Of a stretch of DNA of 64,000 nt, positions 3,973 to 62,088 are shown in pieces. This stretch comes from Escherichia coli (GTDB lineage: Bacteria; Pseudomonadota; Gammaproteobacteria; Enterobacterales; Enterobacteriaceae). The position numbers were made by a program, and so were the translations under genes. Position 1 is the stretch's first letter, and every line of letters begins with the position of its first letter. The stretch lies in the NCBI RefSeq assembly GCF_024502345.1, contig NZ_JALDNN010000001.1. One strand, written 5' to 3'. The notes beneath the pieces are model-generated. The model was not told the DNA's origin, did no database searches, and worked only from the letters and a program-made list of their open reading frames with translations.

Positions 3973-4288
3973 CTAAACGTCAGTATTCTCAGGTGAATAA
4001 AGATGCTTCTGGCGCATGTAGGCAATAAAAATGCAGGATGGTAGCGTCACCCGGTATGCGGGACCGGCTAAATCAATCAGCAGCCAGAGAGAACTGAGCA
4101 CCCAGCCCACGGGACCGGCAAAAGCGCCCATGGTACGCGTCAGCATGGCATTTCCTGCAACGGTCAGCCCTCTGCCTAACAGGGCTTTCGCCACACCATT
4201 TGTGACAACAAGTGCCATCTGATAGGCCGCAAACCCGGATGTTTTAATCCCCGCCTGGATTGCCATGGTCAGCAGCTCCGGCGTGGGA
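3973..4288 (-). pseudogene. 3' fragment of the 249-aa module protein (paralog of 61339..62088), truncated at a recombination junction
   Basis: Nucleotide homology to 61339..61660 ends abruptly near 4288; only the C-terminal ~100 codons remain. Confidence 0.6.
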
Positions 4289-5081: not shown

Positions 5082-6404
5082 ATGAAACCCGATAGTTCTT
5101 TAAACCAAATAACGCAGACAATGAAACGGAATGATGTTGATTCTGTGGATAGTCGCTTTTTTGAGTCAGCGCAAAACATGAAAACCAGCGTTGACGTTGA
5201 AGATTGCTGCGTTGAAGTGATGGTTCGACATCACAGCCCAAAGAATCAAAGAGAGGCATTCACTAAAGCTTTTTTTGATGAGTGTAAAATCCGTGCAGTA
5301 CAAACTGGCCGGACTATCGAAGCCAGCGATACAAAATGTACCGGGCTTAAGGCTATATTCCACTCATCCGGACGCATTAAGTTTATTGTCCGCAAAAGTA
5401 TTCGCGGAAAGAATGTTTACGTTGCAGTAGGAAGTTACCCTGAATTTTCCATTAATAACGCAAGGGAACATGCCTTTAAAATAATTCAGGAGCTTAAGGC
5501 TTCCGTTGAGACTTATGGTGAGCGTTTTCTTACGCACAGCAAAATAACGTTTAATGAACTTGTGGAACAGTATGTGAAATGCGTACTTAACACGGGCGTT
5601 AAGCGTTCAGCTAACACCGACCTTTCTAAGATCCGTAAATACCTGCGCCCTCTTCTCGGTGACAAAAAGCTGGCAGGTATGACGGAGGCAGATGTTCTGA
5701 GCTATCTACACGATCTCGATCTTAAGCCTGCCACACGCAACCGCCACCTGGCGCTCATTAAAGCGGTCTTTACCTGGGCTATACGCATGGGATACACCAG
5801 CCGCTCTCCGGCGCTTTATATCAAAGCGCTGCCTGAAGTGACGTCAGATCGCCGCGCCATGGATGACTCCCAGCTTCAGCGCTGGATGGAAGTCTGTGAG
5901 TGCTGGCGTAATGGTAAACCCGATCATGAAGCCCTTGCTCTGCTCATGTTCCTTGCCCTGACGGGGCTGCGTCTGGGGGAAACCCGTCACCTTCGTCTTG
6001 AAGATGTGGACTGGAGCCGCAAGGTTATCACCCTTCGCCATACCAAAAACGGCAAACTCCGCCGTGTACCGGTATGTGATAAGGCTTTCGTTCTTCTGAC
6101 AGAACAGCGTCAGCATCTGGGTGATGAAGGCTGGGTATTTCCGGGCAAGGGGACCGACAATCCGGTTTCTGAGCCGCGTCGCCTGCAAAAACGGCTTTGT
6201 GAGGCTGCGGGTATTCCACCGTTCACCATCCATGAGATGCGCCATACCTTTGCGACAAAACTCATTGAGAGCGGGGCCGACATTCACACCGTCAAAGACT
6301 TACTGGGCCACAGCACTATCAAAGTGACGGAGCTTTACTTGCACGCTTCCCCGGCGCGTTACCACGAAGCTGTTAACCGGGCGATGAATGTTTTTCCGGC
6401 CTAA
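5082..6404 (+). CDS. tyrosine-type site-specific recombinase (phage/island integrase)
   Basis: 440 aa; catalytic-domain motifs GLRLGETRHLRLEDVD, HEMRHTFAT and LLGHSTIKVTELYLH (R-H-R-Y signature). Confidence 0.8.
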   Translation: MKPDSSLNQITQTMKRNDVDSVDSRFFESAQNMKTSVDVEDCCVEVMVRHHSPKNQREAFTKAFFDECKIRAVQTGRTIEASDTKCTGLKAIFHSSGRIKFIVRKSIRGKNVYVAVGSYPEFSINNAREHAFKIIQELKASVETYGERFLTHSKITFNELVEQYVKCVLNTGVKRSANTDLSKIRKYLRPLLGDKKLAGMTEADVLSYLHDLDLKPATRNRHLALIKAVFTWAIRMGYTSRSPALYIKALPEVTSDRRAMDDSQLQRWMEVCECWRNGKPDHEALALLMFLALTGLRLGETRHLRLEDVDWSRKVITLRHTKNGKLRRVPVCDKAFVLLTEQRQHLGDEGWVFPGKGTDNPVSEPRRLQKRLCEAAGIPPFTIHEMRHTFATKLIESGADIHTVKDLLGHSTIKVTELYLHASPARYHEAVNRAMNVFPA

Positions 6405-7577: not shown

Positions 7578-8228
7578 TTAACTGAGAGCGGGTAAGGACT
7601 GAATAAATCCCGGGTCTTCAACAAGACGACACAGACTGTCGTTACGCCGGAAAGTCTCCTGCAGGGGCTGAACCAGATGGATTTCATCCAGGGAGAATAC
7701 GGCGATATGTCCGTCGTGCTCTGCCACCAGATACCAGGCCTGCTGGTGGATAAGTAACCGGCAGGGAGCCAGCCGCTCACAGCGCTGCCCCTCGGCAATC
7801 AGAGTCACCCGCCTGCGCCCGGTAATGGCCTGAATCAGTCGCCAGAAAGACAATGCGCCTGATGGCGAAGGAGCCGGACTGGCGGGTGCGATTACGCAGG
7901 GAGACTCATCGCACATCAGCAGTGCGTTTACCAGACGACGGTCAAAGCCAGGGAAAAGACCGGCCATCCCGCTGCGGTGGGCAAAGATAAGCACGTCGGG
8001 CACCATCTGCGTCTCACTGCCCGCAGTGCGTAAGCGGTAATATCCGGACTGATACTCCAGGTCCAGATACATCAGCCGCTCACGAAAATCACGCCGCAGC
8101 GTGCGCACCGACACACCAAACTCAGCGGCAAGCTTACGCACACTCAGCGTTTCCCCTGCCACCAGACGGCTGATTATCAGTGACAGCCTGACAGCCAGCC
8201 GGTCATGGCGGCGTTCTGCCTGTGTCAT
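7578..8228 (-). CDS. yfjR: HTH-WYL regulator, YfjR-like (CP4-57-type island)
   Basis: 216 aa; HTH ([16 protein letters not shown]) plus AWYLVA motif; lies downstream of yfjP/yfjQ-like genes in the order recalled for E. coli CP4-57. Confidence 0.7.
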
Positions 8229-8444
8229 GAGACGTTCTCCGTGAAAGTTAACTGACTGAAAATGATGTGATTACTTTAAAGAGGGGGTCGGACAGGGTAT
8301 GGACACCACAGAAACTATTTTTCATTTCTGCAAAAGCCAGAGGCAGCGGGGGTTACAGGCCTTCCCTCGGTGAGTGAGGACCGTCAGCACGGTGCGATGC
8401 GGACAGGTGGTGTCCGATATTAACAAAGCAGCAACATTAAACGG

Positions 8445-11572: not shown

Positions 11573-12629
11573 GGCTTTGTTGAATAAATCGAACTTTTGC
11601 TGAGTTGAAGGATCAGATCACGTATCTTCCCGACAACGCAGACCGTTCCGTGGCAAAGCAAAAGTTCAAAATCACCAACTGGCCCACCTACAATAAAGCC
11701 CTCATCAACCGTGGCTCCATAACTTTCTGGCTGGATGATGAAGCTATTCAGGCCTGGTATGAGTCAGCAACACCTTCTTCACGAGGCAGACCTCAGCGCT
11801 ATTCTGACCTTGCCATCACGACTGTGCTGGTCATTAAACGCGTATTCAGGCTGACCCTGCGCGCTGCGCAGGGCTTTATTGATTCCATTTTTTCTCTGAT
11901 GAACGTTCCGCTACGCTGCCCGGATTACAGCTGTGTCAGCAGGCGGGCAAAGTCGGTTAATGTCAGTTTCAAAACGCCCACCCGGGGTGAAATCGCACAC
12001 CTGGTAATTGATTCCACCGGGCTGAAGGTCTTCGGTGAAGGCGAGTGGAAAGTCAAAAAGCATGGCCAGGAACGCCGCCGTATCTGGCGTAAGCTGCATC
12101 TCGCCGTTGACAGTAAAACACATGAAATCATCTGCGCTGACCTGTCGCTGAACAACGTTACGGACTCAGAGGCCTTCCCCGGGTTAATCCGGCAAACCCA
12201 CCGGAAAATCAGGTCAGCCGCCGCCGATGGCGCTTACGATACCCGGCTATGTCACGATGAACTGCGGCGTAAGAAAATCAGCGCGCTTATCCCTCCCCGA
12301 AAAGGTGCGGGTTACTGGCCCGGTGAATATGCAGACCGTAACCGTGCAGTGGCTAATCAGCGAATGACCGGGAGTAATGCGCGGTGGAAATGGACAACAG
12401 ATTACAACCGTCGCTCGATAGCGGAAACGGCGATGTACCGGGTAAAACAGCTGTTCGGGGGTTCACTGACACTGCGTGACTACGATGGTCAGGTTGCAGA
12501 GGCTATGGCCCTGGTACGAGCGCTGAACAAAATGACGAAAGCAGGTATGCCTGAAAGCGTGCGTATTGCCTGAAAACACAACCCGCTACGGGGGAGACTT
12601 ACCCGAAATCTGATTTATTCAACAAAGCC
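11573..12629 (+). mobile_element. IS903-group insertion sequence (IS5 family), 1057 bp
   Basis: Terminal inverted repeats GGCTTTGTTGAATAAATCG at 11573 and its complement ending at 12629; internal sequence matches recalled IS903; flanking 9-mers differ (no target-site duplication). Confidence 0.9.
11605..12573 (+). CDS. IS903 transposase
   Basis: 322-codon ORF filling the element; DDE transposase of the IS903/IS102 type; ORF track start is a TTG codon. Confidence 0.9.
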   Translation: MKDQITYLPDNADRSVAKQKFKITNWPTYNKALINRGSITFWLDDEAIQAWYESATPSSRGRPQRYSDLAITTVLVIKRVFRLTLRAAQGFIDSIFSLMNVPLRCPDYSCVSRRAKSVNVSFKTPTRGEIAHLVIDSTGLKVFGEGEWKVKKHGQERRRIWRKLHLAVDSKTHEIICADLSLNNVTDSEAFPGLIRQTHRKIRSAAADGAYDTRLCHDELRRKKISALIPPRKGAGYWPGEYADRNRAVANQRMTGSNARWKWTTDYNRRSIAETAMYRVKQLFGGSLTLRDYDGQVAEAMALVRALNKMTKAGMPESVRIA

Positions 12630-13024
12630 ACTGTGTTTATCAAATTCCATGCCCTTTTTGCTGCTTAATTTTAAATGACACTCTGATCATGCACCGTGAT
12701 TGAAATAAGTTATAGCCACCCCTTAATCATTTTTTTCAGACGACATTAACTTCGGAGTAAATAATTTAACACAATGAAATATCAAACCGCATCTGGCCTG
12801 AATGTTGAGTATTAATACGTGACGGATTGTTAATATATATCAGTACATAAACCCCAATATTCCAGTAATACACACCTACACAATACACACCAAGCAATTT
12901 AGTCAGCATCACCCAACTAACATCCAACACAAACTCAATAAGCCAGATTTGATACCACCTAATTACCTCAACCATCGCGGGTAAGGTTCCGTCCTGCCCG
13001 ATATTCAGATCACAGGAATCTATT

Positions 13025-13636
13025 ATGCTTAATGATATTTATCTTGACCAACGTCATGCCCCATTCAATACAACGTATTTGCAACGGATGCTGGGTGTAA
13101 TTGATAACGCTATAGCACAACACCCAAGGACAATGGCTGTCCGTGTCGATCTACGTCTGCCTGATGACAACTGTAATAGGAATAGTGGTCTGATATCCCG
13201 TTTCATTGAATCGCTTAATGCAAAAATCGATGCTCGGTACCGAAATAAAATAAAGAATGGCATCAGGAGCTACCCATGCCAGTTGCGTTACGCCTGGGTT
13301 CGGGAAGTGGGAGAAATAAACGAGAAGTCCCATTACCACATGGTACTTTTCGTGAACAAAGACACATTCAATGGACTTGGGAGCTATGGAGAAGGGGGAA
13401 CGGGATTAGCCAGCCTGATACGTGAAGCCTGGCTGAGCGCTTTGCAACTAGGCCCTTACCCCGAATACCGAACGTTGGTCCACATCCCGGACAACCCATT
13501 GTATTACCTGGACGTCAATAATTTAGACTACAAAACGGTTTACGATAAACTCACTTTCAGGCTGAGTTATTTTGCGAAAGAGCGCACCAAGTCATACAGC
13601 CGAGATGAACGCTCGTTTGGCTGCAGTCAGTCCTGA
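13025..13636 (+). CDS. YagK/YfjJ-family (inovirus Gp2-like) island protein
   Basis: 203 aa starting MLNDIYLDQRHAPFNTTYLQRM...; family typical of CP4-type islands (recalled similarity). Confidence 0.6.
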   Translation: MLNDIYLDQRHAPFNTTYLQRMLGVIDNAIAQHPRTMAVRVDLRLPDDNCNRNSGLISRFIESLNAKIDARYRNKIKNGIRSYPCQLRYAWVREVGEINEKSHYHMVLFVNKDTFNGLGSYGEGGTGLASLIREAWLSALQLGPYPEYRTLVHIPDNPLYYLDVNNLDYKTVYDKLTFRLSYFAKERTKSYSRDERSFGCSQS

Positions 13637-13941
13637 GGCAAAACAAACTAAGTCTATAAAGATTTTTTCAGCCTGGCTCTAATCGACTGAATCTCAGCAT
13701 ACTCCGCTTTTGAAGCCTTGACACGTCAGTTGTTCTTTCACCTCTGAGTGGCTACTCGCGACTGCCTGCAGGAGACTGATTATGTTATTGACCGCAAAAT
13801 CCATTAACTGACTTTTCGACTTAATCTCCTTAAGTTATGTGAGAAATTTGCCGATATGAAAACATGATCCTCCAGTCGCTACTGACATGCCCTGTCAGTA
13901 GCGACTGGTAATCTCAAGGAAAAATTACAAGGAGAACGCGC

Positions 13942-14170
13942 ATGAGCGGGCATGAGGTAATGGTACAAAGAATAACCGCTATTATTGCAGAACTTTACCA
14001 GTACGGTTTTGTATCACGTAAGAAGATGATGGACGAATTCAACATCAGTGAGCGTACTTTGTATCGTGATCTTAATCGTCTGGGCGACAGAATCGTCCCC
14101 GATGGTGATGGTATTTACAGGCTGGCTCCCGCTTACGCTAAACCTCAGGCTCTAAAAGAACAACAAAATC
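13942..14170 (+). pseudogene. N-terminal HTH fragment of a YfjR-like regulator, truncated at the junction with appC
   Basis: Frame encodes ...MMDEFNISERTLYRDLNRL... then runs out of frame into appC sequence at ~14170. Confidence 0.4.
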
Positions 14171-15133
14171 TCGGCCATGTTTATTATGGCGATCAGCGCC
14201 TGGTATTTACTGCGCGGACGGGAGCGCGATGTCGCATTACGCTCGTTTGCCATCGGTTCCGTCTTCGGTACTCTGGCGATTATTGGCACGCTGCAACTCG
14301 GAGACAGTTCTGCGTATGAAGTCGCGCAAGTACAACCGGTAAAACTGGCGGCGATGGAAGGGGAGTGGCAAACGGAACCTGCACCTGCACCGTTCCATGT
14401 GGTTGCCTGGCCGGAACAGGATCAAGAGCGTAACGCCTTTGCCATCAAAATTCCCGCGCTGCTAGGGATCCTCGCCACTCACTCATTAGATAAACCCGTG
14501 CCGGGTCTGAAGAATTTGATGGCTGAAACCTACCCACGCTTGCAACGCGGACGTATGGCCTGGCTGTTAATGCAGGAAATATCGCAAGGCAATCGTGAGC
14601 CGCATGTGTTGCAGGCATTCCGGGAACTGGAAGGTGACCTGGGCTACGGCATGTTGCTCTCCCGCTATGCGCCGGATATGAATCATGTCACAGCCGCACA
14701 GTACCAGGCGGCGATGCGTGGTGCAATACCTCAGGTTGCGCCGGTATTCTGGAGTTTCCGCATCATGGTGGGCTGTGGTTCCCTGCTGCTACTGGTGATG
14801 CTGATTGCGCTTGTCCAGACGCTGCGTGGCAAAATCGACCAGCATCGCTGGGTGCTGAAAATGGCGCTCTGGAGTTTGCCGTTGCCGTGGATTGCGATTG
14901 AAGCCGGGTGGTTTATGACCGAGTTTGGTCGTCAGCCGTGGGCGATACAGGACATCTTACCGACATACTCCGCGCACTCCGCCTTAACCACAGGACAACT
15001 GGCTTTCTCACTGATCATGATCGTAGGGCTTTACACCCTGTTCTTAATCGCCGAAGTCTACCTGATGCAGAAATATGCCCGTCTGGGGCCGAGCGCGATG
15101 CAGAGTGAACAACCGACGCAGCAACAGGGGTAA
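14170..15133 (+). pseudogene. appC: cytochrome bd-II ubiquinol oxidase subunit I, 5'-truncated (C-terminal ~320 codons only)
   Basis: Protein from ...AMFIMAISAWYLLRGRER to ...SEQPTQQQG matches the C-terminal part of AppC; upstream sequence is island DNA. Confidence 0.85.
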
Positions 15134-17774: not shown

Positions 17775-17800
17775 AGAGCATTCAGCTACCTGAATGCTCT
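17775..17800. terminator. bidirectional stem-loop between convergent appA and etk
   Basis: Perfect 11-bp inverted repeat AGAGCATTCAG / CTGAATGCTCT with 4-nt loop, preceded by an A-run. Confidence 0.5.
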
Positions 17801-50689: not shown

Positions 50690-50781
50690 CGGAGTAACTT
50701 GTCAGAAACATCAATCTTCGTCATCATTTCAAAGAAAAATAATTAGTTAAAGCAGTCCGGGCTGATTGCCCGGACTGCTTA

Positions 50782-61338: not shown

Positions 61339-62088
61339 CTAAACGTCAGTATTCTCAGGTGAATAAAGATGCTTCTGGCGCATGTAGGCAATAAAAATGC
61401 AGGATGGTAGCGTCACCCGGTATGCGGGACCGGCTAAATCAATCAGCAGCCAGAGAGAACTGAGCACCCAGCCCACGGGACCGGCAAAAGCGCCCATGGT
61501 ACGCGTCAGCATGGCATTTCCTGCAACGGTCAGCCCTCTGCCTAACAGGGCTTTCGCCACACCATTTGTGACAACAAGTGCCATCTGATAGGCCGCAAAC
61601 CCGGATGTTTTAATCCCCGCCTGGATTGCCATGGTCAGCAGCTCCGGCGTGGGATTGCTGTAGCCTGTCTGCAATTCTTCCGCCACGGTCTTTAGCTGAG
61701 CGGGTGTCATCTTCTCAAGGCTTTTCTCCAGGATCTTCATCAGCAGATTCATTTCAATGGTTTCAACACTGGATTTGCTGTTGTAGTTCACCTTCATTTT
61801 ATCGCAGGCATCGGTAAGAATTTCCCGGTACAGCACCCCTTTACCCCAGCGGAGCAGCGTGGCAAAGCTGTTCGCCCCAAACGTCTGAACTTCGGCGGCA
61901 ATGGCATCCCAGTAGCGCGGGTGGTTGGGCTTGTGTTTTTTATACTGAGGATCATAGGTCAGCGTTTCCGTGATGCGTGCCAGTCCGTCTTTCGGATCGC
62001 AGATAAGCACAGAAACCAGTAAATCCAGATCGTCACGATGACAGTGGCGCAGAAACTCAAGGTCGGGGTCGTGTCGGTAGGTAGCCAT
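61339..62088 (-). CDS. hypothetical protein (249 aa) with Gly/Ala-rich hydrophobic C-terminal segment
   Basis: GAGGTGA SD; C-terminus ...GVAKALLGRGLTVAGNAMLTRTMGAFAGPVGWVLSSLWLLIDLAGPAY looks membrane-associated; first gene of the module. Confidence 0.55.
   Translation of the reverse strand: MATYRHDPDLEFLRHCHRDDLDLLVSVLICDPKDGLARITETLTYDPQYKKHKPNHPRYWDAIAAEVQTFGANSFATLLRWGKGVLYREILTDACDKMKVNYNSKSSVETIEMNLLMKILEKSLEKMTPAQLKTVAEELQTGYSNPTPELLTMAIQAGIKTSGFAAYQMALVVTNGVAKALLGRGLTVAGNAMLTRTMGAFAGPVGWVLSSLWLLIDLAGPAYRVTLPSCIFIAYMRQKHLYSPENTDV

Follow-up and report, generated by a model that had tools for sequence, protein, structure and literature searches.

A perfect 37-bp palindrome lies at positions 13872-13908 (assigned to neither strand) of a 64,000-nucleotide (nt) stretch of Escherichia coli DNA (RefSeq assembly GCF_024502345.1, contig NZ_JALDNN010000001.1; hereafter, the window, i.e., the whole stretch analyzed), and we consider it highly probable, from comparisons of sequence, that this palindrome is the predicted cognate binding site of the WYL-domain regulator encoded downstream of it, situated inside that gene's own promoter. 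The fuller statement, which adds that the regulator works there as an activator in the manner of DriD and PafBC, appears to us as apt to hold as to fail. Elements of this class are already established; the specific regulator and the candidate defence system that it heads, PDC-M09, are uncharacterized.

With the sequence CCAGTCGCTACTGACA-TGCCC-TGTCAGTAGCGACTGG, the palindrome has 16-nt arms (13872-13887 and 13893-13908, 100% complementary) and a 5-nt spacer, and no other perfect short-loop inverted repeat in the window is as long; simple arithmetic gives an expectation of ~1e-4 perfect 16-bp repeats with a 3- to 8-nt loop per 64 kb. A preliminary description of the same DNA had its sequence and perfect pairing right, and had placed it at 13875-13911, 3 nt too far to the right. 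The palindrome occurs once in the window, even with 3 mismatches allowed per arm, and the region containing it was found in 19/5426 complete E. coli genomes, which carry it at this same locus only; plasmids and phages searched for the region gave no matches. On these counts we rejected a dispersed repeat (REP/BIME-like), and the motif is not the common repeat unlinked to regulators that the preliminary description had entertained as a contrary outcome. That description had also thought an intrinsic terminator unlikely, and rightly so: no T-run follows the palindrome on either strand, and a terminator scan of 13000-14400 returned nothing.

A conserved core box coupled to a putative -10 hexamer

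The comparative set comprised 28 loci with homologues of the regulator (27-100% identity), drawn from Enterobacterales, Pseudomonas, Shewanella, Rhodanobacter and a Helicobacteraceae metagenome-assembled genome (MAG). In 20 of the 28 loci the exact motif TGACA-N5-TGTCA stands between -54 and -68 relative to the start codon, and in 25 it does so with at most 1 mismatch, against a background elsewhere in the same loci of 1.4e-5 (exact) and 6e-5 (≤1 mismatch) per position, i.e., 0.002 and 0.008 per upstream window. The box holds its distance to the WYL start codon across changing neighbourhoods. In the window, the conserved core box ACTGACA-TGC-CC-TGTCAGT occupies 13881-13899 (plus strand), is built of near-invariant columns in alignments A2 and A4, and has a predicted position of about -40 to -22 from the transcription start. 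More specifically, the inner 7 positions of each arm (ACTGACA and TGTCAGT) are invariant or nearly so in these alignments, whereas the outer 9 positions are not conserved and are specific to the lineage. In 23 loci the G and C of both GWC triplets are invariant and the central base is A or T, with T>A variants (TGACAGT) in L064 and L068. BLAST alignments with the diverged loci L062-L067 and L071 start at 13881-13883. The spacer dinucleotide CC (13891-13892) is likewise near-invariant; it breaks the two-fold symmetry and always faces the -10 hexamer described below, also at the additional boxes of other loci. This CC could serve as an orientation mark, or as a contact for sigma region 4 or for the regulator.

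When pairing over the 16-bp stem was assessed in 23 loci, the inner pairs never covaried, and the outer pairs were formed in ~52% of cells versus 25-41% in slid controls. Because the constraint falls on a short core sequence, and pairing outside it is not kept, we favour a protein-DNA site rather than an RNA stem; the full 16-bp stem was ruled out as the functional unit, since its outer 9 pairs are not conserved. Long symmetric arms are confined to some lineages (16 bp in the window, 14 bp in L060, 13 bp of other sequence in L005 and 10 bp in L008); the palindrome is unchanged in L004 and L061, and the shorter arms of L060 show a compensatory T>C/A>G change. The Pseudomonas homologues L007 and L008 (~5890-5946) carry an extra half-site, CTGTCAG, upstream of and abutting the palindrome, thus giving three half-sites.

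The predicted -10 hexamer TAATCT (13909-13914, plus strand) begins exactly 11 nt after TGTCA and is preceded in this lineage by a TG at 13906-13907 (extended -10). T13909, A13910 and T13914 are invariant in alignment A2, while surrounding bases vary. A TAnnnT motif lies exactly 11 nt past TGTCA in 17 of the 24 primary scored boxes, including those of Pseudomonas and Shewanella homologues of 34-40% identity, and the same offset was observed at 5 extra boxes, namely, a divergent pair in L009 (TAGCAT and TAGGAT) and single boxes in L016 (TATAAT), L017 (TAAAGT) and L004 (TAGAAT). Extra exact boxes ahead of other genes were located in L009 (10303-10356; the Rhodanobacter pair, 39 nt apart), L016 (4730-4744, after the regulator gene; the Helicobacteraceae MAG, with a perfect TATAAT), L017 (1338-1352) and L012 (12491-12505); as TAnnnT follows most of them at exactly 11 nt, they hint at small regulons. 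A -35 element sought 16-18 bp upstream of TAATCT was absent, and the hexamer present there, CATGCC, has no -35 similarity. The left half-site CTGACA was rejected as the -35 of the TAATCT promoter, for which the spacer would be 21 bp, and a sigma-54 promoter (TGGCAC-N5-TTGC) was rejected upon inspection of the sequence, given the misfit of its register and of its key GG and GC dinucleotides. As the box is coupled to a -10 hexamer at fixed spacing, the site is best regarded as part of a composite promoter. The transcription start is predicted near 13921, ~7 nt after the -10, which would place the box centre near -31 and the half-sites at about -38 to -34 and -28 to -24. A ribosome-binding site, AAGGAG (13929-13934, plus strand), stands 7 nt before the ATG within a purine-rich block conserved in alignment A2.

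These results refine the earlier proposal of an operator. A regulator-binding site in the broad sense is borne out by the core recurring at the same distance upstream of regulator homologues (25/28 loci against a background of ~0.008) with the geometry of known WYL-regulator sites; its likely binder, however, is the regulator encoded directly downstream rather than the island's regulators in general. Conservation is limited to the inner 7 bp per arm, and the fixed spacing to the -10 hexamer makes the site part of a composite promoter, whose box may be an activation box rather than an operator of the classical type.

The downstream regulator and its characterized relatives

The intact regulator is a 292-amino-acid (aa) protein that matches the Pfam families HTH_DeoR, WYL and WCX above gathering cutoffs and the PADLOC WYL models at 6e-20; only its winged helix-turn-helix (wHTH) part survives in the window. 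A fold search with an AF2 (AlphaFold2) model of the intact protein (mean pLDDT 78) returned DriD (E = 4e-12), PafBC (1e-11), BrxR (4e-9) and CapW (5e-9), all at probability 1.0. Likewise, its sequence profile matched PafBC and DriD more strongly than BrxR, in a comparison that aligned the WYL-WCX region alone; searches of PDB sequences with the regulator or its helix-turn-helix (HTH) profile did not recover the HTH domains of DriD, PafB or BrxR. The recognition helix reads SERTLYRDL, with R38, T39, Y41 and R42 invariant in protein alignments A1 and A3.

In intact loci, two genes that match the PADLOC candidate defence system PDC-M09A/B (E = 2e-120 and 3e-214) follow within 4-35 nt of the regulator stop, often with a gene for an 840-aa YeeR_C protein next after them. 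Given this compact, operon-like spacing, a single promoter would serve all of the genes. There is one regulator gene per cassette, and the cassette occurs in unrelated neighbourhoods in Mixta, Pantoea, Hafnia, Pectobacterium, Citrobacter and others. Neither NCBIfam nor PHROGs gave informative names for the cassette proteins, and a literature search for PDC-M09, for this regulator and for WYL combined with TGTCA returned no publication on the system. PDC-M09A (L002, 13216-14061) shows a similarity to subunit A of the alpha-xenorhabdolysin binary toxin that falls below the curated NCBIfam cutoff (E = 1e-4), hinting at a membrane-active effector.

The PafBC-dependent promoters of mycobacteria (RecA-NDp / P1), which work by sigma adaptation, carry the in vivo consensus tGTCgg(N10)tA(N3)T, with a '-26 element' at -23 to -28 and no -35, and residues R46 and R50 read the two guanines of GTC (PMC8635444, PMC5656591). 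The window sequence TGTCAG-N10-TAATCT agrees with this consensus in its specified positions at identical spacing, also lacks a -35, and belongs to a wHTH-WYL-WCX regulator whose recognition helix carries a pair of arginines at positions i and i+4. In contrast, PafBC is a PafB/PafC heterodimer with a nonpalindromic site at which PafB alone contacts DNA, and it does not bind its promoters without RNA polymerase (PMC13004042), whereas here we find one gene and a palindrome of two half-sites, in Gammaproteobacteria with sigma70 and ahead of a defence cassette rather than DNA-repair genes. The site would work like PafBC promoters, yet it is not a member of the PafBC system proper, which is defined by a heterodimer and a single element.

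DriD of Caulobacter crescentus recognizes ATACGAC-N7-GTCGTAT (i.e., CGACA-N5-TGTCG), with R37 and R41 reading guanines and E40 the outer C, and it still binds a C1>T variant having the core TGACA..TGTCA at 6.9 nM (PMC10853764); DriD promoters have no -35, and their box stands at a fixed distance from the -10 (PMC13004042). The site in the window resembles this arrangement in several respects: (i) a homodimer on a palindrome with a G-W-C core and equal half-site spacing (7 bp between triplets); (ii) a box over the would-be -35 position, at a set distance from the -10 and with no recognizable -35, in the regulator's own promoter region; and (iii) a regulator model whose best fold matches are to DriD. 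It differs in having T/A instead of C/G as the outermost base, for which reason we regard it as a variant of the DriD/DdaA-type box, and in having Tyr41 at the putative counterpart of DriD Glu40; the replacement of a C-reading Glu by Tyr41 would agree with the T at that box position. Further differences are a spacer that is not AT-rich and bears the invariant CC, an identity of ~17-22% in fold alignments, and the control by DriD of DNA-damage and cell-division genes. DdaA of Moraxellaceae, a WYL activator that also drives CRISPR-Cas and restriction-modification genes, uses the box CGWCA-N5-TGWCG (PMC12392091). Its palindrome has the same architecture, with W in the triplet centre; DdaA is a global regulator, whereas the one described here is local to its cassette, with a box centred at about -31.

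Activation, repression and other explanations

We favour an activation box because of the class of the box, the spacing to the -10 that is fixed to the single nucleotide, the lack of a -35, and the closer similarity of the regulator to activators. The functional unit would then be the core TGACA-N3-CC-TGTCA, its half-sites read by the two wHTH domains of a regulator homodimer, each recognition helix reading G-W-C through R38 and R42, both invariant, in the manner of PafB and DriD. An effector bound in the WYL domain, probably single-stranded DNA arising from phage attack or DNA damage, would allow the dimer to substitute for the missing -35 contact and so to switch on its own gene together with the co-transcribed PDC-M09 candidate defence genes. 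In each arm, the outer 9 bp may represent a lineage-specific extension of the symmetry, owing either to extra flank or wing contacts or to template-switch 'perfecting' of a quasipalindrome, the latter being a known mutational mechanism in E. coli. The wider proposal that a regulator heading an anti-phage candidate operon (PDC-M09) is an activator replacing the -35, with the grammar TGACA-N3-CC-TGTCA-N11-TAnnnT at the spacing of mycobacterial PafBC promoters, is one that we put forward as possible, a little short of an even call.

Several points weigh against this interpretation. Both characterized defence-associated WYL regulators, BrxR and CapW, are repressors, and binding centred at -31 could just as well keep RNA polymerase off the promoter. 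The -10 hexamer and the start site are deduced from conservation only, and the TGn extended -10 of this lineage might free the promoter from any need for an activator. Farther upstream, a second conserved block, TTAAGT-N13-TGCCGATAT (13830-13857, plus strand; alignment A2), could be the real promoter, constitutive in nature, or another protein's site. As a footprint this block reads TTAAG-N13/14-TGCCGATA(T), is conserved in cassettes of 63-100% protein identity, varies by 10-20 nt in its distance to the box between loci, and overlaps the best sigma-70-like position weight matrix match of the region (CTGACT at 13808-13813, a 17-nt spacer and TAAGTT at 13831-13836; 8.8 bits). Three of the 28 loci (L014, L017 and L018) have no box at ≤1 mismatch in the expected position, L017 having an exact one 603 nt upstream. 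Boxes of DdaA lie ~50 bp upstream of start sites, so the grammar is not common to every relative, and in the published DriD oligonucleotide the stretch after TGTCG is 11 nt long when CAATCT is taken as the -10 and 10 nt long when ACAATC is. Finally, we infer the equivalence of R38/R42 to DriD R37/R41 from the residue pattern, as searches with hidden Markov models missed the DriD and PafB HTH domains and yielded no residue-level alignment to them.

The same site and binder could operate with the opposite logic, which we regard as possible but somewhat doubtful: as at the auto-repressor operators of BrxR and CapW, an apo-dimer would block RNA polymerase until an effector releases it, de-repressing the regulator and the defence genes. 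Operators of the R-BOX type, from the BrxR systems of E. fergusonii pEFER and Acinetobacter NEB394, are 10- to 11-bp inverted repeats that likewise have a 5-bp spacer and lie near elements of the brxR promoter, just downstream of its -10 or overlapping its -35 (PMC9122601, PMC9122589), and repeats of this kind precede many BrxR homologues in published surveys (PMC9122601); CapW binds 19- to 24-bp palindromes over the -10 (PMC9122588). An inverted repeat with a 5-bp spacer just upstream of a dimeric wHTH-WYL-WCX regulator that, as brxR does, forms the first gene of a candidate defence operon, a box that spans the core promoter region, and the lineage's extended -10 (TGGTAATCT), from which transcription could begin unaided by an activator, all fit repression. 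Set against this, the box is unlike the BrxR_Acin site ATACCGTAAA-AATAA-TTTACTGTAT, and the helix SERTLYRDL has an R-T-x-x-R pattern rather than the base contacts SRQQ of BrxR or S/Q/S of CapW. Similarity in both sequence and fold places DriD and PafBC above BrxR and CapW. Moreover, reports on these two repressors describe no set spacing between box and -10, and an occluding repressor needs none, whereas here a -10 spacing fixed to the single nucleotide, without a -35, recurs in very distant relatives and at extra boxes in front of other genes.

Explanations in which the regulator does not bind here fare worse. An RNA-level element, i.e., a hairpin in a 5' leader transcribed from an upstream promoter, or terminating the yagK-like mRNA that precedes the site, and acting as a stabilizer, processing site or attenuator, is very unlikely. 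The stem is very stable (-34.7 kcal/mol for the 106-nt context folded as RNA, z = -5.0 versus shuffles), the symmetry of the outer arms is, as given above, somewhat above chance, a longer stem-loop is likewise predicted for the BrxR_Acin site, which lies at its tip (PMC9122589), and the candidate sigma-70-like promoter at 13808-13836 would read through the hairpin. Yet there is no T-run, and Rfam gave no match at the palindrome (the sole chance match, to a snoRNA at E = 2, lay elsewhere in the scanned region); a known structured RNA family was rejected on that ground and because the stem is not maintained by covariation. The inner pairs instead keep a fixed sequence, roughly half of the loci have broken outer pairs, and the conserved unpaired loop CC and the TAnnnT at fixed distance are DNA-level signals. 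If transcription does start after TAATCT, the hairpin lies outside the regulator mRNA altogether. More improbable still is a recombination or replication site of the island, as the preliminary description had suggested in part, be it a nick or origin hairpin used by the inovirus Gp2-like YagK/YfjJ protein encoded next to it, or a site that marks an attachment point or a boundary. The upstream open reading frame (ORF) at 13025-13636 does belong to the YagK_YfjJ_C / REP_ORF2-G2P family, and homology among diverged cassettes does begin at the box. However, the motif accompanies the WYL gene into unrelated genomic contexts without the island: no yagK-like gene was called upstream in 9 of 12 additional loci (L060-L071; L063 has one, and the L068 contig shows nothing upstream), and the upstream neighbours include MCP, MarR, GerE, methyltransferase, SRAP and integrase genes while the distance from box to WYL start is kept. 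Accordingly, we discarded the idea that the neighbouring Gp2-like YagK protein nicks DNA or starts replication here, as the box follows the WYL gene where yagK is absent. The window holds no direct-repeat partner of the palindrome, and the restriction of the region to 19/5426 E. coli genomes also argues against such a site. Genes of the yagK/yfjJ type are far more widespread in E. coli than that.

The truncated locus in its island and implications for WYL regulators

The window represents an E. coli chromosome with a CP4-type island adjoining appC-appB-appA. The ORF that starts at 13942, 34 nt past the palindrome, had been described beforehand as a truncated HTH gene; consistently, it matches the full-length regulator only over 77 codons, the wHTH domain, so that a 5' remnant of the wHTH-WYL-WCX regulator gene occupies 13942-14172 (plus strand). 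Homology to all intact genes ends at 14172, and the frame continues out of context to 14319. At this point a deletion has left a junction (14172/14173) at which the WYL regulator breaks off with codon 77 and internal appC sequence follows; this 5'-truncated remainder of appC (cbdA; cytochrome bd-II subunit I) spans 14173-15133 (plus strand) and is annotated in RefSeq as 'cytochrome ubiquinol oxidase subunit I, incomplete, missing N-terminus'. The deletion took out the PDC-M09 genes together with some 200 codons from the start of appC; no insertion sequence remnant was seen at the junction. This truncated junction is common to 16/5426 complete E. coli genomes, and the intact gene occurs in only 3/5426; strains Z226-5 (WP_060571123.1) and PSJ-29 are examples of E. 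coli that encode the whole regulator. Because the regulator has lost its WYL and WCX (dimerization and sensor) domains and the PDC-M09 genes are deleted, the palindrome in this window is probably a relic without a cognate binder, unless the island's other WYL regulator cross-reacts.

That second WYL regulator is a YfjR-like protein of 216 aa with the helix SVRTLRRDF (7578-8228, minus strand). Upstream of its gene, in the region 8285-8420, the minus strand carries a perfect palindrome, CGGACA-CCACC-TGTCCG (~8400-8416), and a degenerate box, GTCCA-TACCC-TGTCC (~8291-8305), which is followed by 11 nt and TAAAGT. These boxes share the layout of the 13872-13908 site with a GGACA/TGTCC specificity, and hint at a family of orthogonal box specificities. 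In L004 (the Enterobacter sp. R1 island), a YfjR-like gene is preceded by GGACATACCCTGTCA, 11 nt and TAGAAT (boxes 1152-1166 and 1263-1277), and further upstream by TGACATGCCCTGTCA, the central 15 nt of the window hairpin, which suggests possible cross-talk between two WYL regulators.

Upstream of the palindrome, an IS5-family transposase ORF (11605-12573) separates the yagK-like gene from a hypothetical gene of the island (308 aa); strain G3/10 instead has an HTH gene of AlpA type in this interval, and so differs here from the strain of the window. Other perfect short hairpins in the window were found at 50750-50780 (13-nt arms, 5-nt loop) and at 17775-17800 (11-nt arms, 4-nt loop), the latter just after appA. 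The 15-mer TGACAACAAGTGCCA is identical at 4203-4217 and 61569-61583, and may mark a repeated element near both ends of the window.

For this genome the site has little consequence, as it looks like the orphan of a deletion. The comparison nevertheless yields a precise promoter model that can be tested, comprising the box, its orientation mark, the spacing and the -10, for an uncharacterized clade of defence-island WYL regulators, and it ties this model to the promoter layout used by PafBC and DriD, both activators in the response to DNA damage. For WYL regulators beside defence systems, the simple sequence rule TGWCR-N11-TAnnnT would predict which genes they control and whether they activate or repress. 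If the proposed activator mode is correct, a G-W-C box standing 11 nt from the -10 and replacing the -35 would be an ancestral grammar of WYL transcription factors shared across phyla, and some defence cassettes would be switched on by infection or by a single-stranded DNA signal rather than de-repressed.

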